Shown: positions 8,689 through 59,069 of the stretch, in pieces
How positions within the stretch are numbered: the first letter of the stretch is position 1
Layout: every line of letters starts with the position of its first letter
DNA from: Tubulanus polymorphus
Lineage: Eukaryota; Animalia; Nemertea
NCBI RefSeq assembly: GCF_964204645.1
Contig: NC_134035.1
Location: 6,967,101-7,031,100, forward strand
DNA length: 64,000 bases
Reading direction: 5' to 3'
Made by a program: the position numbers and the translations under genes
The notes under the pieces: model-generated
What the model was told of the DNA's origin: nothing
The model's database searches: none
Seen by the model: only the letters and a program-made list of their open reading frames with translations

Positions 8689-9960
8689 ATGGGTTCATTG
8701 GATTGGAAGTGTTCTATCAAGTTTCCTCTGAATGAGGTAAACGGAAAAATTCTTCATCAAGATGTAATTAACGCTATAAAGGACAGTGCCGACGGTGACG
8801 TGAGTAAAATAGCAGCGATTCAAATAACGTCAAAATTTTGCATAATTACTGCAGTAGATGAAACGAGTAGCCTAAAGATCTTCTGAAACAATCCGGATTA
8901 ATCTTTCGAGGGAATAAAATCACTCCGGATGATGTAGATTTAACCTTTTTGTCTGTGAAAATAGTCGATGCTCCGTATGAGATGTCGGATCTGACCATTG
9001 TCAACTTTATTAAAAATTATGGTGATTATGTTGAAGGATCGGTAAAAAAGGCGTGATAAGGGACACTCAAATATATACTGGGACCAGATATTTGAAATTG
9101 AAACAAGTTAATAAAGTTATTCCAAACTTCACATCAATCGATGGATTCCGCGTAAGAGTGTACTATGAGGGTATAGGGTGTCAACATTGCCTTGGCGATC
9201 ATCGCTCAGCTGACTGTCCGTCACGATTTAAGTGTTTCAAATGTGGCGCCGCAGAGCATAAAGCTCGTGATTGTACCGTGACTCTGAGCGACACGATATC
9301 CAACGAAGCGCGTGACTATTGCGAGAAAACGTCAAGCGAACCGCAGTCCAATACTATTACAAATAATGTATTGGTAATCGGTGATTCTAACCTCCGTGAC
9401 GTCGAGTTTCCGAATGGCACGGTTATTTGCCAGCCTGGTGCTAGCGGTGAAAAGATTTCATCAGATCGATCGTCGATTACTGACGTTATTCTCCACCGTA
9501 CAAACGATATAAGTAACAACAAAAATGACAGTGACACTGTTGTGGTGAATCTGTCCTTAGCCATGGCCAAAACAACGGAACATTTCAATGAAGCCCAGAT
9601 TCACTTCTCTAGTATCATTCCAAGAAAAGGTAACTCCAACAACGTAAAAGAGTACAACAGCCTTGCAATAGCAGTTAACAACCATATCGGGAAACTATGC
9701 GCGGAACAGAATATCATGTTTATTGATAATGACACTATATTGAAACTTAAACCGTCTGGTAAAGCTTTGGACCACTTTTATTGTATCACCTCAGTGAAAC
9801 CGGCAAGCTTGCATTGCTTAAATACTTTTGCGAGGCAATAGATGGCGTCACTAGTGATGCTTTCTGCATACCGACCTCGGCAAAACGAAAGGAGAGATCA
9901 CTATCCGGAACACCACCTTCAATAGAAAAAACCAGGAAAAAACAATACGTTGAATATTAG
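8689..9960 (+). pseudogene. LINE ORF1 with CCHC zinc knuckles and SGNH esterase domain, frameshifted
   Basis: CQHCLGDHRSADC and CFKCGAAEHKARDC knuckles; VLVIGDSN esterase block I; collinear with the ORF at 41630. Confidence 0.8.
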
Positions 9961-15505: not shown

Positions 15506-16820
15506 TTATCCGCTAGCTCGTTCGTTTGTTCTTCGTACATGCTGGCGTAAAAATCTCGGGACAGTTTGGCGTTCTTGTTTGAAATAGCGTTCTCTATGGG
15601 CTTCGTCGTCGAGTAGTTCCATGATGTCCATCGCTCCGTTGTCGTTGATTTCTTTGACTAGTTCTACGAGTATCTCCTCGCAGACCGCCGGCGAAATGTC
15701 GTACTTCGTAGATCCCATGTCGATACGTCCTTTAAACCGTACCGCTAGAAATCTTCTTTCCGCGGCTTCTAGAGCTATGGTGGCGGCGAATTTTTCCATG
15801 GGATCTCTTTCGTTGGTAGTTATCAGAGTCATACACGGCGGGTTGCTCTGTTTCGTCGAATGCACTTTAGCTTCCCACGACGATTGGTACATGGCGAGTA
15901 TCATCGATAGTAGCGCCGAATTGTGCCAGAACGAGTCGGACGCGTCGTCTACTTTGAATACTCTGTGACCGTTCGACATCTCGCACGCTCCTACCCCTTC
16001 GCTATCGTTAGGCATTTGCGAGCTTATCAGGTCGGGAAATAATATTCTCGCCAGTAACGATTTGCCGGCTCCGGCGTCTCCGTAAAAAATTATATGCGGC
16101 GCTCTAGTTATCACGCTCATTCGTGCTTCTATTACCGCGTTCACTAGCACTAGTAATAATTCGTGGTGACCGAGTAGGCGTCCGTCCCACGTCGCTTCGG
16201 TTACCAGTCCCAATATTTGTTTTATCAATATCACCCCTCCTTTCGGGCTCAATTTGACCGTTTCCCGTTCCCGTTTTTTCTTCAGCAGTTGCGCGCCTTT
16301 ACGAACGCGCGGTATTACGCTCAACGGCCAGTTTTTGTAGGCGCGTCTTATTTTCAATTCTTGGACGTTATAGCCGAATTCTTTTACGATTCGCATCGCC
16401 CATTCCGACGATCCGGGTCGGTGATCGTATTCCGCGTACAGTTCTTCTACTCTTGGCGAAGAAATCTTCGTTGACTTTCGCGTTTTGGGTTTCCAGATGT
16501 TGCCGCAATTCGAGCGGTATGGTTTCGGCGTGTTTATACATATATTGTATGTACGCGCCTAATTTCTCGGTCGGTTTCACGTACTCGTTCGCCAACTCGA
16601 TACCCTTCTCCGTCAGTAGTTGTCGTATGGCCGATTCCGATTGTTTGTTGGCCACACCGTTGTCTCCTTTTTGCGTTATTATTACTCCGTGGGCGAAACC
16701 GTCTCCCGGTTCTCGCGGGCCGATGTGTATGCGTACGTCGCTTCGTCCGATACGCGCTTCGAGTCGTACCGATTCACGGTTGCTCGTCGTGAACGACCAG
16801 TTTCTGGCTCTTGTCGACAT
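15506..16820 (-). CDS. rep: Rolling-circle Rep (HUH endonuclease + SF3 helicase), ~437 aa, one frameshift near 16450
   Basis: Motif I ARNWSFTTSN, motif II-like FAHGVI, motif III YIQYMYK; Walker A GDAGAGKS, Walker B FKVDD, motif C LITTN, Arg finger ERRF; the helicase frame is open upstream of its ATG (RVEELYAEYDHRPGSSEWAMRIVK) and overlaps the endonuclease ORF. Confidence 0.88.
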
Positions 16821-17035
16821 GTTCGATTTTCTCTGTAGTCGAATAATCTTCTAGCTATTTCGGTGATGCGCCTTTCGCGAAGTACCCGATTCTCTAGAGC
16901 GCCGTGTTTTATAACCCAGGTATTAGTCACCTCGTCTCTTATCGCTACGAAATCTGCCGTCCTTCCCATGGTATAACCGCGCCACTTGCGTCCGAATAGA
17001 TAACCGGATACGATGAATAGGAAAACGACGATCAT
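16682..17035 (-). CDS. Small viral ORF (117 aa) with N-terminal hydrophobic segment, overlapping the Rep start
   Basis: ATG 8 nt after the capsid stop; MIVVFLFIVSGYLFG then RKWR; fills the gap between cap and rep. Confidence 0.5.
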   Translation of the reverse strand: MIVVFLFIVSGYLFGRKWRGYTMGRTADFVAIRDEVTNTWVIKHGALENRVLRERRITEIARRLFDYRENRTCRQEPETGRSRRATVNRYDSKRVSDEATYAYTSARENRETVSPTE

Positions 17036-17043
17036 AGCTCTAT

Positions 17044-18140
17044 TTATATTCTGTTCTTGTGTAATATCTTATACTCGACCTCGGCCGGTATGTGTATTTC
17101 GGTGGCCGCTACGGCTAGGTTTTTACGAATGGAGTGGTTGTAAATGCACAGCTGAGTTATCAGGGCGCAACTGTTCCACAGGCTGTAGAAGTGTTCGTCG
17201 TACCAATTATCTTTCGACCCTATGTCGACCGTTCTTATAGTCTTCGTCGGATCTGTAGTACTCGTTATTTCGCTACGCAGTACTCCTACCGGTATGTTCA
17301 GGGTTACGCATCCCAGTCCCATGTCGTGGTTCCTGTAACTGCCCTTTTGCGTCAAATGGTTGGCGTCGTGATAATTGCTGCCTGCTACCGTTCGTTTCAG
17401 GTCCCAATCTACCGCCGTCCGTAGCCAGGCTATGGGATTTTGCGGCGCGTTGCTATTGTTCGCCCCCCCCCGTCCGATATAGCCCCTTCGGTCGACAACG
17501 GGAACAGGGTTATTTTCGCGTCCAATACTTTGAATTGATCGTACAAGTTAAAGAACGCCGGATGGTTATTGGGGAATACTTTCCATCCCGGAGTTTCGGT
17601 TAGATCGAAGCAGAAGCTAGTCATTTGCGACACCCTAACCTCCGCCTTATCTCCGTAACCTCCCGAACTCGGATCGCTGGACCAGCCCGTGAACGTTAGA
17701 TACCCTCGCTTAATCAGCGACGTCTGGTGATAGTTTTCCGGTTTTAACGTCGTGTGCGCCGCCATGTCTTGCGCGTTTCCGTAGTCTTCTCCACCGCCCG
17801 CGCTTCTTCTTGCCCGTTTCATCGGGGTTTGTCCGTCCGTGGTTTCGTCCGCCATCGCCGGGAATAGCGCTCTCTTGGTTTTGAATACAGCTGATGTTAA
17901 TCGCGCACCGAAACCCGTTACACCGTTCGCACTTTCCAAGAATTTCTGATCCGCCGAGTTGTATCGCAGGTACGGCGCCCATGAACCGTACTTTTCTTGA
18001 AGTTCCCCGTATTCCTTATCGTGTTGCCTGCAAACTTCGTCTATTCCTTCTCCTCGCTTATTAGAGATATCGTTGAACGGTCCGCAATGAGGTAACCCGG
18101 GTAACGTGTATCCGTGTCTTTTACGTTTCAACGCGGGCAT
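17044..18140 (-). CDS. Capsid protein with N-terminal parvovirus-type phospholipase A2 domain, ~365 aa, one frameshift in a G9 run (17463-17471)
   Basis: KRKR basic motif, LPG..HCGPFN Ca loop, DEVCRQHDKEY catalytic HD, PYLRYNSADQKF; then FNLYDQFKVLDAKITLFP and terminal EVEYKILHK resembling CRESS single jelly-roll capsids; adding one G joins ORF 17430-18140 to ORF 17044-17355 with no stops. Confidence 0.82.
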
Positions 18141-31509: not shown

Positions 31510-34500
31510 TTTAGCAACGGACTTTTTGCGCGTTGCCAATTTTACAAAACAGAAAATTCAAACGATTGAATTTATGTGTTAATACCAGTTTATTTTACGT
31601 CTTAATCAGTTGGATAGCAGGCACAGAGTGTTATGATAATTAGTTACAGTATACACAGAATAGAATCGAATATTATACTACTTGATTACTCATACTTCAT
31701 CAGATCGTAACTGAGATTGTCCTACAATGACTTTTCTTTAACTACATACTTAATACAAAGGCCTATTTCTACAAACAAATAATCATTAGCCGTCATTTTA
31801 GATTAAATACCTAATCTATAAAAATTGACTCTCAGTACCAAATGTACGTGTTACATAAAGGTCTGATTTCTCAGCTAAGCCTAGGTACACATTTATGCCA
31901 AAACATATATAAGATTTAACTATGAAAAATGGATGTAACTCACCTGAAAATTCAAACGATTGAATTTATGTGTTAATACCAGTTTATTTTACGTCTTAAT
32001 CAGTTGGATAGCAGGCATAGAGTGATCAAATCTGTGCTGCCAAAAACCAAGTTGATTAAGACACTCCCATCAAGAAATTAGTGACCAAAACTTCTAGCGA
32101 TTGGTTCATCCAAATCTTAATGACATATTAAGACACTAATTACCTGATGAGAGCTAAACTAGTTGCGAGGGCAGGTGAGTTGAGAGTTGTTTATATTGCT
32201 ATTACATCACTTATTCAAAAATAGTTCCAGTTCGCTAGGTAGACAAAATACTCAATAAACAAGACAGCCTACTTGAGCTGCCAAAACGGTATCCGGGTAA
32301 AAGTGACAAAGACTAAGGGTTAGATCCATTAATGGACATAGGAAAAATCTACAAATATGTTTTCTTAGCTACAAATGACCTGGCAAAATATTGATTACAA
32401 TATTTAAACATAAAAACACAATCCGCAGTTCCAGTTAAAAATACTCCTTGCTAAACTCTCCCACACTATATTCAAGCTTTTGTCCACAAAAGCAGAAAAT
32501 TAACACACAAGTCTAGGGAGGTAAAAATATAAAGTCATCTCATTCAACATAAGTCCTGCAATATATCTCTAAAAACTTACATTCCTATTCCATTGCATAA
32601 TTCTTATAATACTAAAAGGGTAAATACATGGCAAAACATCAGCAACAATCAACATAATCACCTAACAATAGACAGTGACTCATCGATATTGTTATATTAG
32701 AAAAAATAACCCAAATCCAGGTGTAGTAACATTAATAATCCTTATCATATAAAAATATGAAATACTCATCAAATCATAGATATAGTAAAAAAAATTCACA
32801 GATACAGAAAAATCACCGCCACCATTTAGCTGCAACATCGGCGCATTGAAAAATACTATAGAACGGATATACATTTTTTTTTTTTTTTTTTTTTTTTAAT
32901 GGTTTATAATATAATTATGTACCATGATCTGTACTATGAAAGTAATACAAATTTCATGACATTGGTAAATAGTACGCCAGATCCATATTATACTCGAAAA
33001 CTTGACATGTAGTATTTTAACTGACGGTAATCCTCGACGGAATGTAATTAATCAATAACCCAACAAAATTTAGACTACCACAGATTCATTCTCTTTGAAG
33101 ACGCATTGCACAAAATTCAAGATAACCTGTCACGACGATTCAAGTTGACCGGTGTGGGGTGGCAACTAACGGACACCGTAAGTTGTACCAGATCCAGGCG
33201 GACACGAGAGAAACATCCCGCACGAGATAAGTCATAGCTCACCAAGGGAAGAGACTAATCACGAAAAATCCTTCAACAAATTCCAGTATTCGAAAAATCG
33301 TTCCACCTAATAAAAAGAAATTCAACCTAGGAGTATGACACCTGCTATTTCAAGCAAGAGACGCGAAAGGAGAGTTGTGCGCACAACTCATAGCACATAT
33401 AAGTTGTCTCTACCCGTGCCAAACTCCTAAAAAAAACACATTCCAATCACAGTTGAAACAGCAAAATCGAGTTATGATCTCTTGAAACAGAACCTTCGTT
33501 TTCGCGTTTTACCCTGTCTCGTGTGGGTACGGAAGAACTCGTCCTTGGCCGACTGGGTAAGATTATCAGAAGGTTGCCACGAACTTGGAGATTTATCGGA
33601 CCATTTTACATAGCAGAGGTGTCTTTCAAATTCTGTTGAAATTGCTCGGCGATGACGGTCGTAAGAGCCTGCGATTTCTCCAAAGCAGCATCCGTCGAAG
33701 TTGCAGCAGCGGCTACAACAGGTGTAGATAACGGCACGAAATTGCTTGAGTTTTCGACGGTCAGGGCGATTTTTCGCAGTTTCGGCATGCTATCATCGGG
33801 CAAATGGCCAGCTACAGTCGCCGCAATTCGTGGCTGTAACCCTTGTATTGCCCGCGAAACGATTTGTTGCGGGGTCAGTGACGATTGTGACGCGAGAATG
33901 TCGATACGGTTAAGATAATCGTTCACCGACTCGTTTTGCGCTTGTATAATATTGGTCGTAAGCAACTGGTCCTCCAACGGCTGAAAGCGCTCTTTCAGTG
34001 CCGCTTTTAACTTATTGATATCTAGTTGGTCGGCAACCGGGAGGCTGTTCTTGATATTGGCCGCATGGTGCCCTAAATGATATAAAACACATCGACGTGT
34101 TTCTCCGCTGGTACGTTGTTCAGCCTGAGATATTGGTCGAAACGATCCAACCAGGCTGGTACATTGGTACCATACCCGACGCCAAAATAATCTAAACTAA
34201 CTTTCGGCATATTGCTTTGTTCGTCCCGTACTAACGCGTGCGCTTCCTGATTGTCCGTGCTGTGCACACGTATATCGACGGGCTGCAGACGTACCGGAGA
34301 GCTCAGTACAGCCAAATTCCAGAGAGGATCGTTCCTCGAAGTCGTCGATCTTGTTATCCTGCCGTTGTTTTGTGCTACCGAGCGAGGATTCATTTGCGAG
34401 AGGTTTCGGAAATCGTTAAAGGGTTCTCACCATTTTAGCAACGGGTTCTCCACCATTTTAGCAACGGACTTTTTGCGCGTTGCCAATTTTACAAAAACTG

Positions 34501-41313: not shown

Positions 41314-41607
41314 TAAATGTATCCGATTTATTTAAATTACCAAATACAAAAGGTAATAATATTAAACATTATACATTAGAACCTTTATATCTATCAAAAG
41401 ATTATGATTCAAATGGTGTTATAGATATATTATATTATGAGAATCATTATATATGGATTAAACTAATTGATTTATTTTTTAAATCAGAAACTAAATTCAG
41501 TAATGAGAGTGCATTATTAAATCATAGATTTTTTAAGTAGTTCATTAGATGATTTATCAAAATCATTAGTTGATGATGAATTAAAAATATTAAAACAACA
41601 TTATCCA

Positions 41608-44600
41608 TGTTGATGCAAGTGAGAACTACATGTCGTTGAAAATAGTTGACGCGCCGATAGAAATGTCAGATCAAACGATTATCAACTTTGTTTCCAAATA
41701 TGGAGAATATGCTGAAGGATCATTTAAAATGGGACGAATTAAAGGTACTAGCATATATACTGGGACTAGGTATCTTAAGTTAAAAAACGTCATTGAGGTT
41801 ATTCCGACATACACAAGAATCAACGGTTTCAATATCAGGATTTTCGGTACGGGCTTTTGCTGTCAGTTTTGCCTAGGTGATCATAACGCATATGAATGCC
41901 AGCTCAGATCAAAACCAGTCGAGTGTTACCGGTGTGGTAGTTTAAACCATAAAGCGCGAGATTGTGGCAAAATGTCACAGCCGCTCTCTGCACCTGCGGG
42001 TGGAGTAGATCGGGCAGTGAGTGACAGTATTAAAATCGACCACCCAATTGACCAGCCAATTGATCAACCATCCGGCACGAAAGTTGTCATTCTTGGAGAC
42101 TCAAACATGCGGGATTTTCAATACCCCGATGGAAAAGTAATTCATCAGTCAGGAGCAACTGTTGAATACATCGACCAACTACTCTCGAAAGTTAGCTCAA
42201 ATATTGCCCATCCCGATTCTGTTGAAAGTGTCGTGGTCCATCTCGGAACTAACGACATTAATCGTCATAGATCCGATGTTGACAGTGTTAAAATGAACTT
42301 CACCATTGGGTTAGCGAAAGTTCAGGAGCATTTCCCGAAATCGAAAATTTGCGTATCAAGCATTATACCTAAAAAGGGGTCATCTCCTACCGTAAAAGAG
42401 TATAATGCAGCGGTTGGTTTCGTAAATAGATATATGGAGGCGTTTTGTGTTAAGCAAAATATGATTTATATAAATAATGATGTGATCATCAAACCTACAG
42501 GCAACATTCGAGATAGGTATTACAACGTCAGTGATAGTCGCGGGGTGCATCTTAATGATTTAGGAAAGTCGGCACTTTCCAGTAACTTTGAATCTGTTCT
42601 TAAACCTGACATTACGTCTACACCATCAAATAACAAAAGAAAGAATAGATCGGTGACCTCTCCACCCAGTGCGGAAAAATTAGCGAAAAAACCAAATGTG
42701 GAATCAGATGGCGATGATGAATAAGACTCTTGAAAGAGTGTCCCGACTCGGGTCAATGTTGACATTAATGTGTTCACTCGACTAGAACATTTATTCTATG
42801 GTTGATATATCAGGCAATAATACCTGTCGTTATTACGACGAAAATGAATTACTCTCAAGTGGAGATAATTTATCTTTTTTTTTCACATAATGCCAGGAGT
42901 TTCAATTCAAATTTTGATAAAATAACGGATTTTCTCTACTATTCGGCCGATAAATTTTCTGTTCTAGGATTCACAGAGACATGGACAAATGATGACCATG
43001 ATAATAGTATAATGTATAATATCCCTGGTTATTCAAGCGAATTCAATTCCAGGATCGAAACCCAGGGTGGTGGAGTAGCTCTTTATATCAAGAACTCATT
43101 GAAATATAAAACCCGCAACGATATCGCACCAAGTTCTCTTACATTCGAATCTCTTTTTATCGAGATTGATATGGGCAAACGCTCCAATATCATTATGGGA
43201 GTAATTTATAGACCCCCAGGAGGAAGGCTCGATCCCTTTGTTGAAGAGTTTGAAAAACTACTTGTAAATATCAATCGCGAAAACAAACGGTGTTACCTTA
43301 TCGGTGACTATAATATAGATTCATCCAAATTTGATGAGCACAGAAATACTGAGGTGTTCGTGGATACTCTGGTTTCATCATCTTTTTTTCCATTGATTGA
43401 TAAGCCTACCAGAGCAACCACGAACACATCCAATGTTATTGATAATATCTTTACTAATGATTTAAATGTCAATCATACCTCCGGGATTATTTGTACTGAT
43501 TTATCGGATCATTATCCTGTTTTTACAATGTGCAAGAAGATTTTAAATTGTTCAAATAACAGACAAAATATGAATCGTTCTTACTGTGCTAAAAATATAT
43601 CCAAGTATCGTAGACTCCTATTAAGCACTGATTGGAATGATATTTATTCATGCTCAGAAGTTGATCAGTCCTACCATAATTTTTCAAACAAAATTAATCT
43701 TGCGTTTAATGAAGCTTTCCCCCCTTCTCCCGACCCAACTAAATGATAGACAACGCCTTGAGAAGCCGTGGATTACTCCAGCGATATTTAACTCCATTAA
43801 GCACAAAAACCGACTTTATAAGAAATCAATTCGTTCTACATCCGTGGATGTCAAGAATAGTTACAATTCTTATAAAAACATTCTTACTAAAATCCTAAGA
43901 AAAGCTGAATCTGATTATTATTCTCAAAAGTTTACCGATATAGGTACTGATATGAAACTTAAATGGAAACTTATTAACCAGATACTTCGTAAATCACCTT
44001 CTCCTATTTTACCTAGTGTTCTTAAACAAAATAACCAGGAATTCAAAGGCGACTATCGCATAGCGTGTGGGTTTAACGATTTCTTTTCTAAAATAGGCTC
44101 ACAAATTTCTGAGACTATACCTGATTTCCCTGGTCCCAACTACACATATTACCTGAAAAATCGTACTAACGAAAATTTCTTTATGTTTCCTACTAATCCT
44201 TGTGAAATTGAATCTATAGTTAGAAATTTTTATCCGAAAAAAAGTGCAGGGTTGGATGGTATTAGTACATCTTTACTTAAAGACACAATAGATCTAATAA
44301 ATGCTCCTTTATCGCATATATTTAATTGTAGCTTCTATGATGGTATTGTTCCGTTTGACATGAAACAAGCCAAAGTTTACCCGTTATTTAAAATCAGGAG
44401 ATTCTGAAAATTTCAATAATTATCGTCCAATCTCTATTCTTCCGGTATTTATAAAGATTTAGAAAAGCTGGTCTTTAACAGATTAATCCTCCTTTCTCAA
44501 TAAACATAACGTTATTTCTTCAAATCAATTCGGTTTTCGATCAAATCATTCCACAGCACTTGCTCTTGCCAAAGTAACAGACACCCTAACATCATACCTT

Positions 44601-45968: not shown

Positions 45969-48286
45969 CAAATAATGATGATTTTCAATTAAAGAGATAT
46001 AAAGGCGCGATTCCATATTCATTTTATAAATCGCATAATGATTTTAACATAACTGAATTATTAAAATAACAATTCTATGATGAATCAAGAATCGAATATG
46101 TTAAAGATGGCGTTTATAATAGATCATTGAATATTTGGAATCATTTCAAAATAAAAAATCATGGACAATTAGTAGATTTATATTTAAAGCCAGATGTATT
46201 ATTATTACCTGATTTGAAAGGTTTAGGGATGTAAATCTAAAATATTTTAATATTGATCCATGTGATTGTTATTCTAGCCCAGGTTTAACTTGGGACTGTG
46301 GTTTAAAATTTACTGATATTAAAATGGATTTATTAACAAATATAGATCAATTATTAATGTTTGAAAAATCTATAAGAGGAGGTGTTTCAGGTGTATTAGG
46401 TGATAGATATTTCAATGTAAATGATTATCCTGGATATAAGTTATTATAATATAGATGCAAATAATCTATATGGTTGGGCAATGATCGAACCACAACCTTA
46501 TGGAGTATTTCAAATAACTGAAATTTTACAGCACGAAAATGTTGATAAATTTGATTGGAAGAAAATAATTCTAGATATTGCAGATGATTCAGATAGTGGT
46601 TACTTTTTTGTTGTAGACTTGGAATATCCTGAACATAAAAAATTTAAATCTAGAAATCTAGCATACTGTCCTGAACAGTAAACTGTAACACATGAAGAAT
46701 TATCAAATTATCAAAAAAGAATTAAACCCGATAATCATATTCATACAGAAAAGTTAATGGTAACTCAGGAAATAAATATAATTATGTAGTACATTATAGA
46801 ATTTTGAAATTCTATTCGAATCAAGGAACTATTCTAAAAAAAGTACATAGATATATTTCATTCAGTCAATCTAAATAGTTCGAGAAATATATAGATTTTA
46901 ACACCAAACAGAGAACTAAAGCTAAAACTGATTTCGAGAAAGATTTTTCCAAACTAATGAATAATGCATTCTATGGTAAGACTTGTGAAAATATTCGAAA
47001 TAGAAATGATATTGAGTTAGTTTGTAAAGGTAAAAGAATTAGACATTTACAAACATATCCTAAATTTATTGGTAACAGAATATTTGATGAAAGTTTAGCC
47101 GTTGTTAAAATGAAAAGAACAAGTATGAAGTTTAATAAACCTATTTATGTTGGAGCATCAGTTTTAGAAATATAAAAATTACTGATGTATGAATTTTACT
47201 ATAACGTATTACAACCATTTTGGAGAAAAGCATATAGAAATCTTATATTTTGATACAGATTCTTACATATTAAAGATAAAAACTAGTAATATAACAGATG
47301 ATTTAAAAACATTAAAACATCATTAGGACGTCGTGGTAACACGACGTCCTGTTGGAATCGTGTAAGTTAGTTGGTTAAGACGTAGATAATTTCTCGGAAG
47401 TGACTGAAAGCTTGGTGATATAACTTGCACATTATTTTAGTCATGAATTTTAAAGGATTGAGATTTGTTTCTCGTGGAATTCTATGCGGCAATTGCTGAG
47501 AAATTTCCAAAAAACATGCGATTTTGGCCCGTTTTGGTTGTACGTCGTGGTTGAAGAGTTAACGCTATGCTGTTGTTATGGGATACCGCAATAAAAACAA
47601 ATTATACAGATAATGTTTGATGGAGATATAAATATTTATTAATAAAAAATATATAGGTTTTCAATCGGCACAAATTGGTGGTGTTTAATAATTTATTTGC
47701 GGGACTATTCTCGCTGGACATGAAGTGGAGTAGTCGGAGCAGTACACGTACACGTGCGCCGTTTTCCAAGAATCCGTAAGTATTGTTCAATTTATTTTGT
47801 GAATTGTGTATCTCACATGTCTCAAAACCTCACACGCTTGCACTGCTTTGTGATGGAATATGTCCATCAGTCGTTTTCTATGTTGTAACTGGAGGGTGCT
47901 GCCCTCTCTCTCTCGAAAATACAGAACAATAGGTGATTGTGTTAATATCTTTTGTCCGCCTTTTTACTGGTTTTTGGGTATATTCCGAGTCGATATTTGG
48001 AGGAAACTTCTACTGTGGAACAGGCAGAATAGGACCTCGTTACATCTGGTGGCAGCGTAGTGGGATTTGATTGTGAAAAAACCAGTTGAAATTGAGTTGA
48101 AGCGGTGAACACGTTTTTCTCCGTTTAGTCTGTGTAAATTACTGTTACTTTTTGTGTGTACTTAACGTATTTTTTTACCTACTTCGTAATTCCTAGTACA
48201 TATTTAGTATTTTTAAGTGCCTGTTTCCCCTACATTTATTTGCGGTCCTGTATTTTCTGTGTCATTTATATAAAAGAATAGTAATT

Positions 48287-49405
48287 ATGTCGGATGTTGA
48301 GAATGATGTGTGTGAGCCCTTGGCATTATCTAGGCCTATGTCACCAACGGCCGGAGCTGCACATCATGACCTCCTGGTTAGTGGGGAGGGTAACCTCTCG
48401 TTAAAACCAAAACGTGGCCGTCCAACGAAGACAAAAGCCGAAAATTTGAAAACATCTGAGGATTCCATCCTCCAGCGACTGACTGAAGTGATGGAGAGGG
48501 TCGTGACGAGAGATGCACCCACCACGAAAATGCACAATATTCCGGCACCCAAACCCTATACCATGGGACACAATTTCCGCGTTTGGCTCGAAAGGTTTGA
48601 CGCGTTCGCTGACCTGGCCCAGATTAGTTCTCGCATCAACGGGGGCGAACAGCGTAAATCACACCTGATGATGCAACTTGACCATGAGGCATACCAGGCT
48701 GTCTCGAACCTACGTCTCGACTCGAGCCTGTCGTATGATGATTTCTGTCGGCGGCTATCATCCCGTTTCCAACAAACAAAGACTGTGGATGACTTTAAGA
48801 TGTTGTTGAAAGGGAGGGACCAAAAGACAACTGAATCTGTGGAACGCTATTCCGACGAGTTAGCAGAGCTGGCAAGGAACGCATACCCTGGCATTGCCTT
48901 CGAGCTGCAGGATGAATTGGCCAAAGACCAATTCCTTAAAGGTAATAGCCTACCCGTCTCAGCGAAGCAGTCAATGTATGCGGCCCAGCCAAGTTCGTTG
49001 GCTGCAGCAGTCGCTCAAGCACGGACTCTGGAAACAGCGAGACGGTTGACTGAGGGCACGACTCATAAACAAAAAGTATCCGTTAACCAGACCCAGCTCG
49101 ACTCGACTAGCTCAGCCATAACCAAACAACTCGACGAATTGAAGTCGATGATGGGAACGCTGATGACTCGAGTAGGCCATTTGGAAGCAGTTGTCTCTGG
49201 TAATGGCAATCGTCGACCACCCGCCGATGACAAATGTTGGCGTTGCAGGGATGCAGACCACCCCAAAAACTTGTGCCCACAAGTTAAATGCTATAATTGC
49301 GGGGGGAGTGGTCACTATTCAAGTAACTGCCACCTACCTAAGGGAAACCAGGGAAACGAGAAGCGGGGTTTTCAGGGGGGCAGTGGAAACCCCATCAGGA
49401 AATAG
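48287..49405 (+). CDS. gag: Gag with C-terminal zinc knuckles
   Basis: WLERFDAFA, QKTTESVERY, DQFLKG; CWRCRDADHPKNLC and CYNCGGSGHYSSNC. Confidence 0.92.
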   Translation: MSDVENDVCEPLALSRPMSPTAGAAHHDLLVSGEGNLSLKPKRGRPTKTKAENLKTSEDSILQRLTEVMERVVTRDAPTTKMHNIPAPKPYTMGHNFRVWLERFDAFADLAQISSRINGGEQRKSHLMMQLDHEAYQAVSNLRLDSSLSYDDFCRRLSSRFQQTKTVDDFKMLLKGRDQKTTESVERYSDELAELARNAYPGIAFELQDELAKDQFLKGNSLPVSAKQSMYAAQPSSLAAAVAQARTLETARRLTEGTTHKQKVSVNQTQLDSTSSAITKQLDELKSMMGTLMTRVGHLEAVVSGNGNRRPPADDKCWRCRDADHPKNLCPQVKCYNCGGSGHYSSNCHLPKGNQGNEKRGFQGGSGNPIRK

Positions 49406-49414
49406 TCCCCCCTG
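49351..49414 (+). promoter_or_regulatory. Programmed -1 ribosomal frameshift signal (G GGA AAC + pseudoknot)
   Basis: Heptamer 49351-49357 in gag phase, 7-nt spacer, stem 1 GGGGTTTTC/GGAAACCCC, stem 2 CAGGGGGG/CCCCCCTG; the -1 frame is open into pol. Confidence 0.8.
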
Positions 49415-52400
49415 TACCGCTGTATATACCCCCCGCAAGACGTAGGAAAAATCGGATGAATACGGCAAATGGTCTAACGTGCGATGCAAGTAGAGATGCA
49501 CCTATTGATGGTTACCATCATACTAGCCCCACCACCGTGAGACCATCAAACCATATTCAAATGATATCGAGACCATCAAACCATATTCAAACGACACCTC
49601 AAGATGGATATGTGGTTGCTGGCCCGGCATGTGATTCTAGTGGAGATACACCTACTGATGGTCCGCATCCTACTAGAACCATCACTGTTAGACCACCACA
49701 ACATACCCAAAGTATAGAAGAAAATCGACGTGACCCTTCGGAGAACAGTGAGGCTCCCAGTCCGGCTACGGAAAACACTTGTCACAAGTTGCGCGACACC
49801 AAGGTTCAAACAACAGGGACAGAACCAGCCCAGACGAGCTTAGTTACAAACATCGGAACAGTGAGGTTCCACGCCTCGGGCCTTTTCTGTGATGCCGTAG
49901 TAAATGACCATTCGAAAGCGGTGGTACTCCTGGACACTGGTGCCTCCTGCACAATCATTAGAGGTTCGGTATGGGACTCTAGCAGCCCGACTGGTGAAGC
50001 CGCTGCACTGAGGCCAATCGAAGGAATCGTGACAACGGCTACCGGTCAGCCAATGGAGTTACGTGGATTAGCTGATGTATGTCTGAGAGTTGGAACTGAA
50101 GAATTTCATGTCCCCATGATCGTCAGTGAGGATTTGGCACAAGACTGCTTGCTTGGAAGTGATTTCTTCGAGAAATATGGCTGCAACATAGATTACCGTA
50201 ACAAAGTGCTCCGCTTCGGAAGCCTCAGCGAGGTGCCTGTCCGCCAGAGCCCCAAACGCGCGAGCGCTTGCAGGGTGTTCATCAGTAAGAGCCAAATCAT
50301 TCCAGCTGGATCCGAGGTGGTGGTAAATGGATACATGAAACGGAGTTATGCTCATAATAATTCGACCTCAGGGATGATCAGCAGCTGTGGACGGAATAAT
50401 TTTTGCACTGGGAAAACACTGGTGGTACCGGAGGCAAACCAGATACCGGTTCGGCTGGCTAACTTCTCGGATGAGGCTTGTAGAGTCGACAGGGGCCAGA
50501 CTATTGGTCTATTCTGCCCCCTACAGTCAGTTGACATCATGACTGTCGACGACCATGCTCAAAACCCGTCAACTCCAAAAATCCAGCTGCAGGGTGGTGA
50601 CAATACTGAATTCAAGGACCTCTTGAGAGAATTGAAAATCGACCAGCTTGAAATCCCCACTGACATGAAAACACAGCTTGTTGACATCATACGGGAGCTA
50701 AAGTCAGTATTCTCGATGGGAGACTTTGACATTGGTCGAACAGATTCGCTTGAATTCGAGATTGACACCGGTGACCACCCACCGATAAAACAACATCCCC
50801 GTCGGCTACCCCCCGGTAGGAGAGCTTTTGTTGAGGGGACGACCAAGGAGCTTTTAGAACACGACTTGATCCGGCCATCCACCAGCCCGTGGTCAAGCCC
50901 AATAGTTCTAGCGAAAAAGGCCGATGGTTCCCTGCGTCTATGCTGCGATTACCGCCGACTCAATGACGCAACAGTCAAAGACGCTCACCCATTAGGTCGA
51001 ATAGACAGTACCCTAGAGGCTTTATCGGGCGCAACCTGGTTCTCGTCCCTCGATTTAACTAGCGGATACTGGCAGGTCCCAATAAAGGAATCAGACAAAC
51101 ATAAGACCGCATTCACGACTGAAAACCATCTATTTGAGTGGAATGTCATGCCGTTTGGAGTCTGTAATGCCCCGGCGTCATTCAGCAGACTGATGGCAAT
51201 GGTACTGGATGATGTTGCATGGAAAACATGCCTTATCTACCTGGATGATGTAGTGGTGTTTAGTCATGATCTACCAACCCATCTGACGCGATTACAAGAG
51301 GTATTTCGTTGCTTTCAGAAAGCCGGTCTCAAGCTAAAACCGAGGAAGTGCTCGCTTTTCCAGCGGCGCCTCAAGTTTTTGGGGCATGTAGTAAGCGAGG
51401 CCGGTGTCGAAACCGACGGTGCCAAATGCGATAGAGTCAGGGATTGGCCGACCCCAACGTCAGTTACCGAACTGCGTAGTTTCCTTGGTCTTGTGACATA
51501 TTACTCGCAATTCATCAAGGATTTCGCCGACTTGACAGCCCCGCTACACCGCCTTACGAGGAATGAACCATTCGTCTGGACATTCAAGCAACAACTAGCG
51601 TTTGACGAACTGAAAGAAAAGCTGACCAGCTCCCCTATCCTGGCATTCCCAGATTTCTCGGAGGGTGCTGGAGAGTTCATTTTGGACTGTGACGCCTCTA
51701 ACTGGGCTATCGGAGGGGTGCTGTCACAACTACAACACGATGGTTCTGAGAGAGTGATCGAGTACAGTAGCCGCACGCTGAAAGGTGGAGAGGAGAACTA
51801 TTGTGCCACCAGGCGCGAAATGTTGGCCTTGGTTGACATGATTGATCACTTCCGCCACCATTTACTAGGCAGGAAATTCAAAGTTCGCACAGACCACGCA
51901 GCACTCAAGTGGCTACAAACCTTCAAAAACCCTGAGGGCCAAGTGGCTCAGTGGCTTGAACGCCTGTCGGAATATGATTTCGTGATCGAACATCGAGCTG
52001 GAAGCAAACATTTGAACGCAGACGCCCTGTCTCGCATCCCTAAGAAACAGAGGAAACATGGGGACTGCCCAACTTTTGGTGACACTGGTCCATCTATATA
52101 CCAGGTGACTGCAAAACATCAGGGCGATTTGACAGCGCACTCCACTGGCTTGTCCAGGAACAAAATAATCGAGGCGCAAGTAAATGACCCCGAAATATCA
52201 GAAATTAGGGAGTTCTTGGCCGGAGATGGGGTCAAGGACAAGAAACGGCTACAACGGTGTGGTAGAACAGCGAGGAGCCTCTATAGTCTGGTTGAGCGTC
52301 TAGAGCTTTTAGATGGCATTCTTGCGCTTAAACCACTTCCGGGGGCTACCTCAACGAGACACCGAGTGGTACTACCCATTTCACTGACTGATGGAACCAT

Positions 52401-52534
52401 AGGAGTCATGAGACGAGAAGATACACAATATCCGTGTAAGAAGATAACAAGAGAAATCCCACAATAAGTTCAGCCAAAACGAGAAACTTGAATAGAAGAG
52501 TTATATATATTTGCGCAACGTTTCGGCTAAAGAC

Positions 52535-53776
52535 ATTATTCCTGGTAACGATAGATTCATTTCGTTTGATGCTAGTTCTCTTTTTACCAATGTTCCTCTT
52601 AGGCCTACCCTTGATTTTCTTAAACGGAAACTTCCTTCGTTGGATTTCAATTTTGACATTCCTACTGATTGTATTATCGAATTAATTGAACTTTGCACCC
52701 AGAACTCCTTTTTTAGTTTCAACAATTCTTATTTCGAACAGGTTTTTGGCATGGCTATGGGGAACCCGCTTAGTCCCATTCTAGCAAATCTTTTCCTGGA
52801 ACACGTTGAAACCGAATTACTACCCCTTTACACAGATACTCTCCCTAAACTTTGGTTACGATACGTTGATGATATTCTTGCCCTTATACCTTTTGACTTT
52901 GATATTGATCAATTTCTCACATTTATTAACTCTTTTTATCCCTCCTTGAACTTCACATTTGAATTGGAAGTTGATGGGAAAATCCCTTTCCTTGATGTTT
53001 GTATACACAATTGTTTGTCTTGTCTAAAATTCTCGGTTTATAGGAAACCTACCCACTCTGGAACATACCTACATTATTTCTCCTTCACCGCTCATAACAT
53101 TAAACTTAGTGTTGCCCAAAGCTTATTCCTTCGCGCATTAAGGATTTGTGACCCCCTTTTCTTGGATGATGAACTAACCCAGATCAAGACCTCTCTTAAT
53201 AAATTAGCTTACCCCGACGACATTTTGAATAAAGCTCTCTTGAGAGCCCGTCGTTCACATTTCAGTCACTCTCAAGGGACCCGCGCGCGTAAACAGCCTA
53301 TTATTGTACCTTTTGTACCTTTTCTGGAAAAATCTAAAACTCCCCTCCATCTCTTAAACAAACAACTCATTTTTACTTATAACAACAAACTTAGTCGTAA
53401 TCTTACTCATAACTCCCCCAAAATTGAACCCCTGAACATTGGTGTATATAAAATTCCTTGTAAAGTTTGTAACAAAATATATATCGGCGAAACCGGACGC
53501 GATTTACACAAGCGCATTCGTGAACATAAGAATGATGTAAAGAATTTTAAGCCTGAAAGCGGTGTTGCTAATCACGTATACGAAACCAGCCACAATTTTG
53601 ATTTTGAAAATGCCTCCATAATTTTCCCCTGTTCAGAAAAGATTAAACGACACATTATGGAATCGGCCCTGATTATTGAAAACTTGAAAAATTGTGTTAA
53701 TTTGAATAACGGTTTTTCCCCCCACAACATTTTGATCTCCAAATTTCTCGCTTCTCTTGTACCCCCGTTATACTAA
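52535..53776 (+). CDS. Penelope RT + GIY-YIG endonuclease (N-truncated)
   Basis: SFDASSLFTNVP, GMAMGNPLSP, RYVDD, YRKPTH, GVYKIPC..C..IYIGETGR. Confidence 0.92.
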   Translation: MIPGNDRFISFDASSLFTNVPLRPTLDFLKRKLPSLDFNFDIPTDCIIELIELCTQNSFFSFNNSYFEQVFGMAMGNPLSPILANLFLEHVETELLPLYTDTLPKLWLRYVDDILALIPFDFDIDQFLTFINSFYPSLNFTFELEVDGKIPFLDVCIHNCLSCLKFSVYRKPTHSGTYLHYFSFTAHNIKLSVAQSLFLRALRICDPLFLDDELTQIKTSLNKLAYPDDILNKALLRARRSHFSHSQGTRARKQPIIVPFVPFLEKSKTPLHLLNKQLIFTYNNKLSRNLTHNSPKIEPLNIGVYKIPCKVCNKIYIGETGRDLHKRIREHKNDVKNFKPESGVANHVYETSHNFDFENASIIFPCSEKIKRHIMESALIIENLKNCVNLNNGFSPHNILISKFLASLVPPLY

Positions 53777-54097
53777 TTCCCTCCATTGTTTTGCCTTTAT
53801 CATACGTAGTTTGCTTGTTTCCACTCACTCACTGATTATCGCCTTTCATGTTCCTTCTCTTTGTTTTATTTGATTACCCCTTAGCTTGTCCTCCCGTTTT
53901 AATCACTTTAGCTTGTGTCTTTGTTTATTAATTACTTTAATCTACATTGCCCCTAGTTTGCCTTGCTTACTTTAGCATTGTTTTCTAGTTGTTATGTCAT
54001 TACTTTAATCTATTCCCCTTTCAATATTTTAATCACTCACTCTGCTTCTATTGTTTTGGTCTTGTATAAATATCTTGTAATATTCTCCTGTACTCAG

Positions 54098-54140
54098 TAC
54101 GCCTGATGATGGCTAATAGTCTTTAGCCGAAACGTTGCGC
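54098..54140 (+). ncRNA. Minimal hammerhead ribozyme in the Penelope pLTR
   Basis: CTGATGA (54103-54109), stem II GGCTA/TAGCC, GAAAC, palindromic ACGT stem III, short stem I CGC/GCG. Confidence 0.75.
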
Positions 54141-56052
54141 AAATATATATAACTCTTCTATTCAAGTTTCTCGTTTTGGCTGAACTTATTGTGGGATTTC
54201 TCTTGTCATAGGAGTCATACATCAGGGATTTCCCGGGAAACATCTCAGTACCAAAAAGACAGAGTGCAAAATTTAAGGAAAGATTCTGGGTATTAGGCCT
54301 CTCAGCTAGGGTCAGGGATTTTGTTCGGGGCTGCAAAACTTGCCAAGAGTGCAAGTCCCCGTCCAAACTACCAAAAGCCCCAATGATGTCTACACCGGTA
54401 GGGCGACGCTTCCAGCGTGTACATATAGACATCGTGGGCCCATTACCGAGAACCCGCCGCGGCAATGTCTACATTCTTGTGGCTCAAGATGCATTCACTA
54501 AGTGGCCCGAAGCATGGCCAATTCGCACGGAAAAGGCCTCCGTGGTGGCACGTGCCCTTGTGAACGAGTGGGTCACCCGTTACGGCTGCCCTGAATCCAT
54601 CCATTCGGTCAAAGGCACGAACTTCGAGTCGAAAGTTTTCATGGAGATGTGTAGGATCTTGGCTATTGAAAAGACCAGAACCACTGCCTACCATCCTATG
54701 GGCAATGGGCAGGTGGAAAATTTCAATAAGTCCCTGAAGGCCATGCTGACTACAGCCGTCAATGAGTGTGGAACAAACTGGGACGAGGAACTACCAGCGT
54801 GTTTGATGGCATTTCGTTCAAGCGTCCAGCACTCCACTCTTGAAACGCCGTTCTACTTGATGTACGCCGAGGAAATGTCACTACCAATCGACATCAGCGT
54901 AGGCTTGCCCGAGGACCACCAACCAAGGACTAAGTATGGCATGGACCTCTCTGACCGCCTCACTAAGTCACACAACATTGTTCGTGATCGACTAGTGATG
55001 GCACAAAGGCGTCAGAAAATGGACTATGACCGTTTCGCAAAACGCGGGGGTTACAAGGTCGGGGATCGCGTGTGGCTGATGGCCATTTCTTGAAGAAGGA
55101 CGAGGCATCTAAGTTCCACCGGAAATGGAAAGGGCCTTACGTCGTGACCGAGAGACTATCGGAGGTGAATTACAGGGTTGTCCTGGAACCAGGCGCCGAT
55201 CCGAGGGCGGTGAAGAGAAAGCGGGTTGTGCACTTCAATGATATGAAACCGTGCTTCCTGTCTAGTGAGACCGTGACCATAGGTAATAAAAAACCTAGAC
55301 AGGAACCGGTTAAAACGACCGATCCCGAGGAGCAACCAACCCTCAATGACGACGAGGGGGAGGAAGATGAAGACTGTGTCTGGACACGGTCACACCCCGA
55401 GACAACGGCAGTTATTCAAGAACCTCTTGTAACAAACCCTACCCAAAACCATCGCGAGCCTCCTACTCAAAACCGCTCCAAGCCTGGGCCTTTGAACATT
55501 ACAAACACTGAGGGGCACAGAAGACTCAGGCCCAGAGTAGGGATCAGGCGCCCTAGTCGGTTCGTAAACTCATGTACAGTCAATAACGATGATTCGCTAG
55601 CCAACCAAAATAGGGCCTCAGACCCTTTGGTGGATCCAAACACACTTATAGGACCTCCAGTCGCCTCGGACAAGATTGAGCAGAACAACATTTTTGATAT
55701 AGAACTGATCCAAAATTGCCAGAAATGTCGCGAAGTTCGGTCCCGGATTAACATGAGGAAAGGCTACTGGTTAGAAATGGGCCGGTACCTTAAATCAAAG
55801 GGTTAAATCCTATATATATATTTAGTACCCTTGTATATAACCCTGTATATATATTTACTTAGTTTTAGTAGACAGTTTATTATCATTTGTAACTGGTGGT
55901 GACTAGGATTTCAGACCCCTTGCACCTCCTGACGGTATGCTTGGGACCACCCACATTGCATGATTCGGGTGGTATCTGAATGAACGGAATCTCCGCCATT
56001 TAGTCTTGTCGTTGCAGCCAACTCATGTTTTGAACTATTTATCGTTTCTTGC

Positions 56053-56888
56053 ATGGACTGTATCGAGTTAGACCAGTTATCTAGCCTCCACGAGGCGACA
56101 CAGACCCTTAAACGGCAGGTCTCGAAAGAAGTCTGTTCCACCCTTCACAGACAGGACAAGACCCTCAGCGAATTGAGAGCCAAGATGGGCAGACTTTATA
56201 ACTCTGCCGTAGAACAGTCGTTTGTGGAGGATCCTGGTCGCATAGTAACCGGTGCGGTAGTAACCGGTCTCAAGACGACAAAGACCCGACGTTTTCGGCC
56301 GAAGATGAGCCCACAGCTGCATTTGAGTACATCAGCCAGGAACTAGTGAACGCCCTGGCCGAATGTGGTGGTGACTCCTCGTACATCTGGTCGAAACTTG
56401 GAGACTTGAAACAAAGGGCAGTTGAGGACTTACCAATCGTGTTGCTGGGAGACTCGATGTTTACGGGGCTAAAGGCCAGCGGCGGTTTGATTACAATTTG
56501 CCACCCTGGTAAACGACTCGGTGATTTGTTGGAGTACCTCCCACATGTATCCTTTAGGGCAAGAGCGATTGTGGTCACGCATGGTATGAACCATGCCGGC
56601 GATTATGGCAGGACGACAGAGGAGTTGGCGGAAGTTTTGGCGCTACTCAAGGGCAAGCACCCTTCTGTTCCCCTTTTCCACCTACAGACCCCTGTCCCTC
56701 CTTGCTGGCGTGGTGACCACAATCGGGTAAACAACATCAACCGGGTTAACGTCTTCGCCCTCCGTGCCGGGTTCCAACAGGCCGACCATCCAGATATCCC
56801 GGATTCTGATTTTGTGGGGATCCACTACAAAAAGTCGGCCATGCACTATGTCTGTCGGGAAATAATCCGTGTGGTAGATCGCGCCTGA
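56053..56888 (+). CDS. Extra Gypsy ORF3: possible coiled coil + SGNH/GDSL hydrolase; SGNH frame open 56201-56888
   Basis: IVLLGDSM (block I), HPG (II), VVTHGMN (III), DFVGIHY (V); lies between the pol stop and the PPT; joining to the 56053 ATG needs a frameshift or splice. Confidence 0.7.
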
Positions 56889-58009
56889 ATGTGTTTCCTT
56901 CGGTACCTAACGATGGTTCACCTGGAGTCGCTTATTCTTTGTAATGTTAGTGACAAAAAGCCATTCAGTCCAAATACTACCACACGTGACCCCCCAGATG
57001 TAGTACACCCCATTGCGAACAGTTTCTTTCCGTTTTCTTTTGATTGTATTTTTCAGCTTCCCAGGACGAGGAACAGTGGCAGAGGGGCAAGCCAAGTGCA
57101 GTGTCCATTGGCCGTATCTACCTTTTGATGGTATAGATATTTTTGGTTAGACACTACGCTTAGGTGCGCCCCGAAAACAAACCACAAACCATTAGTGGAG
57201 ATCGAAAGCTGCATGTATTATCATCACTGAGATGCAACCCTAATGCGAAACAACGACTACGCCATGTTAGATGTCTACTGTATCCAGAGCCGAGAAGTTT
57301 GGAGCTTAATATACTATAATAAGGACTATAATTTAATTTGTGTAGATATTTTGACTATATATTCCTGTTCAAATAGGAGTTTGAACAAGTTGAAGGGGGG
57401 TGGTGTGATGGAATATGTCCATCAGTCGTTTTCTATGTTGTAACTGGAGGGTGCTGCCCTCTCTCTCTCGAAAATACAGAACAATAGGTGATTGTGTTAA
57501 TATCTTTTGTCCGCCTTTTTACTGGTTTTTGGGCTCTCAGAGTCGATATTTGGAGGAAACTTCTACTGTGGAACAGGCAGAATAGGACCTCGTTACAGCT
57601 TTATCGGGAAAACTTATGAGATCATAAATTAAGATGAGAAGCAGCACTTAATTCGTCGGGAATTTAGCCCGGAGGATCCATATTACTTATATAGGTAAAG
57701 TTAAGCGGTTGCGAAGCCGGTCGTTGTAGAATACGTTCCTTAATTTCTTTGATATGCAAGTCGGTATTGTCTCTTGTGAATTACAATTCGATCGATTGGG
57801 TTGAAATGAGGCCTACGTAGTATGTGCTCGATCCTCCTCGGCTTAACAATACAGTCATAGCCTAAGAGTGACAGCACAGTGCACACGAAACAGCATAGCA
57901 GTGAAGTAGGCCTACACTATACAGCAGTATATACACTGCTTATCTCGCTTGTTAAGACATCCCCCCTCAGCAGGGATTCGAACCTAATGGCATGGCATCT
58001 ACAATGGCA

Positions 58010-59069
58010 TGCTCTCAACGCCGAAACTCTGAACTCGTTGCGTTGCAAATATGCGAATCTTAAGTTGATAATAATTGATGAAATTAGTATGGTAGGCCAT
58101 AGACTGCTTCTATTGGTACACAAACGTCTACACTATAACTGGTCTTTCACAGCCATTCGGTGGTATATCTATATTATGTGTAGGAGATCTATTTCAGTTA
58201 AAACCTGTGATGGATTGCTTCATGTTTGAAGATATCCCAAATGCATACGGGCCACTAGCTACTAATCTGTGGAAAGATAATTTCCACCTCTTTGAACTGA
58301 CTGAAATAGTACGACAAAAGGAAAATGCAGTGTTTGTACAGCTTTTGAATAGATTACGCACAAGTAGCCACACTGATGATGACTTAGCACTATTAAAAAC
58401 AGAACATTAGTGAATCATCTTCTGCTCATGTTCATCACCAATGCTAACGTAGACCAGCACGACATGTTAGTTCATGAAAATTGTATGTCGCCTAAGTTTA
58501 CAATAACTGCTCGTGATCATGTGATTGCAAATGTCTCCAACGATTCGGCATCAAATATTCTTCACCAAATCCCAGACGATGTAAAAAGAACAATGCAGTT
58601 GGAAAATAATTTGAAATTAGCCATAGGCCTGTATTATGAAATTACAGCTAATTTGGACACTGATGATGGTCTAACCAATGGTACGATTACCAATGGTAAT
58701 GGGGGTGTTTTGAAATTGATTAATTTATCAACTAATTCAAACCAAAATATGGCTGTAGGGATTGTCTGGTTACATCTTCCCCCTGGAATCGGCCAAGAAT
58801 TGCGAAATTCTATTAGACATCTATATACCGCAAGGATATCTAAAGACTGGACACCAATTGCACCAGTTAAAAGACAGTTTCAAGTTGGAAGAAGCAAAAG
58901 TGCTAGAGTTGAGAGAATTCAGTTTCCACTTCGACCAGCAGCAGCTAAAACTGTTCACCGAGCTCAAGGTTGTACTGTAGATGAAGTTGTCATTAACTTA
59001 TCTGGAAGTGTAGATACCTATATATACTATGTTGCACTAAGTCGAGGAAAACTTAGGAAAAAGGTATAA
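58010..59069 (+). pseudogene. PIF1-family (SF1) helicase fragment, Helitron/Helentron-like
   Basis: LIIIDEISMV, GDLFQLKPV, ELTEIVRQK, DGLTNG, QFPLRPAAAKTVHRAQG, YVALSR; intronless and frameshifted. Confidence 0.82.

Follow-up and report, generated by a model that had tools for sequence, protein, structure and literature searches.

A conserved gene for a predicted SGNH-type hydrolase in the env position of a Gypsy retrotransposon from the nemertean Tubulanus polymorphus

A complete Gypsy-type LTR retrotransposon occupies positions 47849-57597 of the 64,000-nucleotide stretch of DNA that we analyzed (the window), and it carries behind pol a third gene, ORF3, predicted to encode a hydrolase of the SGNH fold. 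Our results support the view that ORF3 belongs firmly to the element and stands where env would be expected. The interpretation that we favor, and consider moderately probable, is that a Gypsy lineage has long retained ORF3 as its third gene, likely spliced, whose product is likely an intracellular acyl-ester hydrolase that aids particle assembly or trafficking at membranes. It does not appear to be an Env, because the protein has neither signal peptide nor membrane anchor.

Results

The closest protein match to ORF3 is 99% identical and carries the NCBI name Tubulanus polymorphus, a nemertean. The features of the element are collected in Table 1. Pol lies in the -1 frame relative to gag, which it overlaps; slippery heptamers occur at 49342-49372. 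The Pfam domain order of pol, PR-RT-RH-IN, is that of Ty3/Gypsy elements. Between the protease and RT (50230-50610) lie about 100 residues that recall a degenerate dUTPase-like insert. No relative of the Gypsy RT was found in viral contigs (8 candidate stretches).

Table 1. Positions of the Gypsy element's features in the window
Feature	Position	Strand	Details
5' target-site duplication	47845..47848	+	4 bp, recurs at 57598-57601; reads join 47844 to 57598
5' LTR	47849..48044	+	196 nt, TG...CA
Primer-binding site (PBS)	48047..48057	+	presumably of the tRNA-Leu type
gag	48287..49405	+	Retrotrans_gag E 5.8e-5, zf-CCHC E 2.8e-4
pol	49342..55806	+	protease, RT, RNase H, integrase, GPY module (Pfam)
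Nested Penelope-like element	52398..54206	+	RT and GIY-YIG, ORF 52496-53776; 12-bp duplication
Spacer between pol and ORF3	55807..56052	+	AT-rich, TA runs, pyrimidine tracts; likely 3' splice-acceptor region for ORF3
ORF3	56053..56888	+	single 277-aa gene in sister copies; frameshifted near 56310 in the window copy
SGNH blocks	56448..56828	+	I GDSMF 56448, II HPG 56502, III HGMNH 56580, V GIHY 56817
Polypurine tract (PPT)	57392..57403	+
3' LTR	57404..57597	+	194 nt

The copy in the window is young yet decayed. Its LTRs are three substitutions and two gaps apart, all within one short patch, and its pol is both interrupted by the Penelope-like insert and frameshifted near 54272 and 55081. The insert does not occur in sister copies and is skipped by 170 raw reads, and small indels near 54272, 55081 and 56310, among the best-supported differences listed, distinguish the window copy from most reads. 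Eleven reads span the empty site; we do not claim an insertion polymorphism, because these may stem from other copies of the flanking repeats.

Several observations concern the surroundings of the element. The reads are very rich in the terminal repeat of the Penelope-like element (about 52410-52500 and 54094-54166), and a second Gypsy subfamily, about 91% alike, is suggested by a contig in which 536 nt (54728-55264) contain 46 differences. One sequencing run of unrecorded kind (X5), set aside as evidence, reaches its greatest depth at ORF3 and the 3' end and has no coverage of the upstream repeats. The flanks of the element are decayed repeats, with a high-copy repeat upstream (46500-47300) and, downstream (57861-59069), pieces of a PIF1-like helicase with weak Pfam matches, which we take to be Helitron-like. 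Elsewhere in the window are a presumably L1-like ORF1 (1316-2113), pieces of a Harbinger-type transposase (4411-5699), and a lone Gypsy gag fragment (33606-34196). On the minus strand, the stretch 15506-18140 contains, in pieces, one frame whose product has a phospholipase A2-like domain (Pfam E 3.5e-14), another with a Walker-A motif and weak AAA matches, and frames between the two; we assume that this layout is that of an endogenous parvovirus-like stretch.

The original prediction, made from the window alone, placed two overlapping frames behind pol, a possible coiled-coil frame from 56053 and an open frame of 229 codons with the SGNH blocks; these are rather parts of one gene of 277 residues. 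P0001, a protein of 277 aa deposited from two loci, starts at the methionine of 56053 and spans all SGNH blocks, as does P0002 from a third NCBI locus of Tubulanus polymorphus, which differs at its C-terminus. The window's 56053 frame is identical to P0001 over 86 residues, to 56310, and its 56202 frame, which to 56888 amounts to 228 aa plus a stop with no methionine ahead of GDS, matches 189 of the last 191 residues. A small indel relative to the window was present at 56310 in 171 of 229 raw reads, a share resembling that at other indels peculiar to the window copy (70-76%), and all contig depth in both contig runs covering 56310 differs from the window too. Presence in sister copies had been set in advance as a check on the prediction, and ORF3 was found whole in the reads and at three NCBI loci. 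Read depth was 269 over ORF3 (2 bins) and 288 +/- 26 over gag-pol (13 bins), a ratio of 0.93, and therefore nearly all copies of the element carry ORF3. Compared with the last flank bin, ORF3 is covered about 49 times as deeply, but as an end bin this flank supports "tens of copies" at most.

A phmmer search of 1.84 billion representative proteins (E<=0.001) returned 12 matches, comprising the query, 10 relatives that are 29-38% identical to the worm ORF3, and one match that was dropped. With the addition of P0014, from the same 90% cluster as P0009, and of an ORF from metagenomic locus L001, the set grew to 12 relatives in 11 clusters, three partial; the full-length relatives have 283-315 aa. 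Mean pairwise identity is 43% in the SGNH domain and 25% in the N-terminal domain. The dropped match (P0013, E 2e-4) is a repeat protein, presumably LysM-like, that aligns to query residues 14-70 only. Pfam gave SGNH matches below the cut-off only, in 4 of 11 family members, and a search of NCBIfam gave nothing useful. No ORF3 relatives were found in viral contigs (78 candidate stretches) or prokaryote genomes (65), and no longer, fused form of ORF3 was seen among 7991 candidates, which is weak evidence.

A metagenome scan narrowed 93 candidate stretches to two loci, L001 and L002, whose contigs, at 1.3 and 1.7 kb, do not extend far enough to include an RT or an LTR. At both, a frame upstream of ORF3 stops shortly before it (171 nt in L001, 109 nt in L002), and these upstream frames, which contain an acidic run, have in common with the tail of the window pol a motif of the form LRPR..R.P.R (pairwise E 0.005 for L001 and 0.001 for L002). 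The L001 frame also resembles the last 19 residues of the window pol (E 0.011). The 3' UTRs have only short patches in common. In these two of the 12 relatives, those with DNA context, ORF3 likely stands in the same position behind pol.

The same two loci bear on how ORF3 may be expressed. TATA-like runs had been noted behind the pol stop, and the observation holds for the window, where the 246-nt spacer contains six overlapping TATAWA matches against 1.5 per kb in the window as a whole, but not for the relatives, since such runs occur in neither of the two related spacers, both about 71-73% AT. An internal TATA promoter is therefore not supported, and a splice acceptor fits better, acceptor-like tracts being visible in both relatives and in sister copies. 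Both related spacers end in pyrimidine tracts with YAG. In L002 the tract and YAG abut the ATG, as they do at 45 of 2212 window ATGs (2.0%), and in L001 they lie within 15 nt of the ATG, behind TACTAAC, as at 184 of 2212 (8.3%); the thresholds for these comparisons were chosen after the sequences had been inspected. Just before 56053 the sister-copy reads differ from the window, and the sister form fits the same acceptor pattern. These features suggest that ORF3 is made by splicing from the 5' LTR transcript.

All four predicted motif blocks, GDS, G, GxN and GIH, are present in ORF3, and residues D133, S134, G152, N179 and H257 are invariant in the worm protein and its 12 relatives (13/13). 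The position three residues ahead of the catalytic His is acidic in all 12 relatives (11 Asp, 1 Glu), and the worm protein is the only one of the 13 without an acid there: its predicted Val was confirmed. In the alignment, worm block V shows this Val with a two-residue gap, and an Asp lies five residues ahead of the His. Block V is shortened in the worm protein, where catalysis would depend on a different acid or on a Ser-His pair. SGNH enzymes with acid-base spacings of 1-12 residues and with main-chain substitutes are described in the available text of PMC10792757, so the missing Asp does not imply inactivity. Four further histidines, H176, H180, H209 and H245, are also invariant in the family. 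That the catalytic residues are kept down to about 30% identity, together with the env-like position wherever it is visible, argues for long selection.

An SGNH fold had been proposed, with Foldseek as the check, and structure prediction supports it. A first Atlas search gave SGNH/GDSL clusters at 0.93, which served as a lead only, and a single-sequence fold (pLDDT 47) was superseded by an alignment-based AlphaFold2 model from 13 sequences (pLDDT 87.5, pTM 0.64), in which five helices (residues 14-122) precede an alpha/beta domain, the SGNH domain of about residues 124-277. All 40 rows listed by Foldseek against the PDB were SGNH/GDSL-type or unnamed or designed entries (best E 4.9e-5), and VIA-align gave a best Z of 16.3 with an rmsd of 2.3 A over 154 residues, barely covering the N-terminal domain. 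A sequence search of the PDB with ORF3 found no match below E 0.29. The coiled coil suggested for the N-terminal part did not hold up: the model has five short helices instead of one long coiled coil, and a crude heptad score exceeded 95% of shuffles in just 2 of 9 proteins. Weak PDB matches to F0 and HA2 helices were dismissed as helical composition.

When ORF3 was modeled in two copies, the score was 0.63 against 0.41 for the best of three controls, a narrow margin (+0.22, with 0.20 required) for which likeness to solved SGNH dimers may account. Among proteins of solved structure, 21 of 30 dimers (7 of 16 from animals) and none of 23 monomers attained the mark. The runs shared at least 31% of contacts at a pLDDT of at least 67 and placed the interface at residues 126-169, from which we infer that ORF3 may dimerize through its esterase domain.

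Hydropathy scans speak to the idea, contained in the original prediction, that ORF3 substitutes for env. No membrane-spanning stretch was found in 14 proteins (highest 19-residue hydropathy 0.86-1.38), and where the start of the protein is complete the N-terminus is not signal-like; the idea is weakened accordingly. In a fuller version, ORF3 would replace Env by remodeling membranes, which would let particles exit in vesicles and gain access to germ cells or new hosts. The env position with its env-like acceptor anatomy and the maintenance of ORF3 across deeply diverged elements agree with such a role, which PMC5408684 and PMC6431247, to judge from their available text, propose for GDSL ORFs. 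Nevertheless, besides lacking both membrane features, the proteins have only 0-3 sequons and the fold of a soluble enzyme, and PMC5408684 itself, in the part available, favors an auxiliary role for these very reasons; we consider replacement of Env improbable. A broader scenario seems to us similarly doubtful: an old, undescribed Gypsy lineage with a dimeric SGNH enzyme and env-like spliced expression, whose particles would leave without fusion through membrane remodeling or deacylation and travel in vesicles. If this were true, esterase capture would join the F-type and gB-type envelopes as a third solution.

The substrate of ORF3 is less constrained by its fold. The structural neighbors found by Foldseek and VIA-align are 9-21% identical to it, with no donor standing out. 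Among the top ones, most of which are separated by no more than about 2 Z units, are O-acetylesterases of carbohydrates and peptidoglycan as well as the OSK domain, which is non-catalytic. Net charge of the SGNH domain ranges from -6 to +6 across the family (+1 in the worm) and is not consistently basic. It is conceivable, although on balance rather unlikely, that ORF3 works as a deacylase in counter-defense or regulation, or else as a binding module, with a host protein, glycan or RNA ligand as its target instead of membranes. A conserved basic surface charge is absent, O-acetylesterases and OSK rank level with lipases in structure, and the four invariant histidines suggest a family-specific site, all of which would suit such a function; deacetylation and depalmitoylation are named as alternatives in the available text of PMC3905857. 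On the other side, the fold does not separate substrates.

The origin of ORF3 was also considered, as the prediction had derived it from LINE ORF1 and had counted two LINE SGNH esterases in the window. The one at 41594-42724 passes the Pfam cut-off, but that at 9035-9841 shows the motifs only. In these ORF1s a CCHC zinc knuckle is combined with the SGNH esterase (esterase motifs only at 9035-9841), and RepBase esterase ORF1ps had no structured RNA-binding domain in 2013, according to the available text of PMC3905857. The ORF3 family profile detected neither LINE esterase at E<=10, and hhalign gave probabilities of 1.9% and 1.1%, with blocks I-III aligned in the first. The LINE-specific His ahead of block III (ZfL2-1 H191), present in the window LINE at 41594, is Asn in the 12 relatives and Thr in the worm. 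Neither profile, hhalign nor this His lends support to acquisition from LINE ORF1, and such an origin is unsupported, though conceivable, in comparisons with these two esterases. LINE esterases pair a strand-3 His with a strand-4 Ser (PMC3905857, available text). The ORF3 family has Asn/Thr at the former position and the invariant H209 on strand 4, possibly a swapped version of the pair in an uncertain register. The ZfL2-1 structure (4C1B), whose crystal is domain-swapped, was not among the structural matches listed for ORF3.

These comparisons also bear on whether ORF3 could be inert, a recent capture from a LINE ORF1 or from a gene of the host. LINE esterases do occur in the same window, the window copy is broken and the worm protein lacks the Asp. 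Against this, ORF3 is intact in sister copies, far-diverged relatives have it, likely in the same position, with invariant catalytic residues, and neither window LINE esterase matches its profile; the inert-capture explanation is largely refuted and appears very improbable.

Discussion

Taken as a long-kept third gene acting inside the cell, ORF3 would encode a soluble, probably dimeric accessory esterase, translated from a spliced message, whose targets would be intracellular membranes or acylated components of the particle. The five-helix domain may serve as a docking module. By analogy with the zebrafish ZfL2-1 ORF1p, the substrate could be a lipid or a lipid-modified molecule; the SGNH domain, not consistently basic, differs in this from the ZfL2-1 esterase and weighs against a lipid role. 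The family offers small soluble proteins and a natural member without the catalytic Asp, with which the lipid hypothesis could be tested directly.

Esterases have been gained by LINEs, Penelope-like elements, Ngaro and rotifer LTR elements, and several of these systems can be set beside the worm element. The ZfL2-1 ORF1p (CR1/L2/RTEX; Schneider et al. 2013, PMC3905857; PDB 4C1B) likewise joins a helical N-terminal part to a C-terminal SGNH domain, and at 302 residues it is similar in size to the ORF3 family (277-315 aa). It hydrolyzes pNP esters and binds liposomes, according to the available text of that study. However, its esterase is ORF1 of a non-LTR element, whereas the worm esterase is ORF3 of an LTR element; it dimerizes through a coiled coil, whereas ORF3 is predicted to do so through the esterase domain; and its esterase has a pI of 10.8 and a seemingly charge-driven membrane binding (PMC3905857), whereas ORF3 is without a strongly basic surface. 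In Ngaro elements, a Hydro/SGNH ORF of putative function is similarly an extra ORF at the 3' end of a retroelement, although these tyrosine-recombinase elements with split repeats belong to a different order (PMC9210276, available text), and the likeness is by description only.

The Env proteins of errantiviruses, of F-type and HSV/gB-type (PMC13524379), resemble ORF3 in their position behind pol and in a probably spliced message, but ORF3 is without their signal peptide, TM anchor and fusion-protein fold. The available text of PMC13524379 does not mention esterase, SGNH or GDSL, and a term search of that of PMC8556966 had no occurrences. A literature search, with Repbase, Dfam, subscription journals and figures outside its scope, found no description of the worm ORF3 family, and an SGNH ORF3 in LTR elements appeared in it only in PMC5408684 and two reviews citing that paper, as far as their text was available.

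The original prediction did not count SGNH domains as a standard gene of LTR elements, but one is already published for the Vesta elements of bdelloid rotifers, whose GDSL/SGNH ORF3 has intact catalytic residues and no CC or TM in the available text of Rodriguez, Kenefick and Arkhipova (2017, PMC5408684); that text reports only neutral variation within the genome. In Vesta and in the worm element alike, the SGNH hydrolase is a separate ORF3 behind pol without a TM domain. The hosts differ, one a bdelloid rotifer and the other a nemertean, and no named rotifer protein is among the 12 phmmer matches to ORF3. Vesta pol has a dUTPase between PR and RT (PMC5408684), whereas none was found in the worm pol by Pfam or PDB matches at E<=10, a search that a degenerate domain might escape. 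The GPY motif is reduced to Pro in Vesta1-5 (PMC5408684) and is an intact KGPY in the worm element (Integrase_p58_C E 5e-10). Vesta GDSL amplicons measure 1.3 kb (PMC5408684) against 0.83 kb for the worm ORF3, and the predicted five-helix N-terminal domain of the latter is a further difference, compared by description only. Outside rotifers, the worm ORF3 and its relatives appear to form a conserved family of their own, with a distinct N-terminal domain, set apart from Vesta by description. An esterase ORF3 in an LTR element is thus a published idea (PMC5408684, in its available text), and the worm element extends this idea to a separate gene family.
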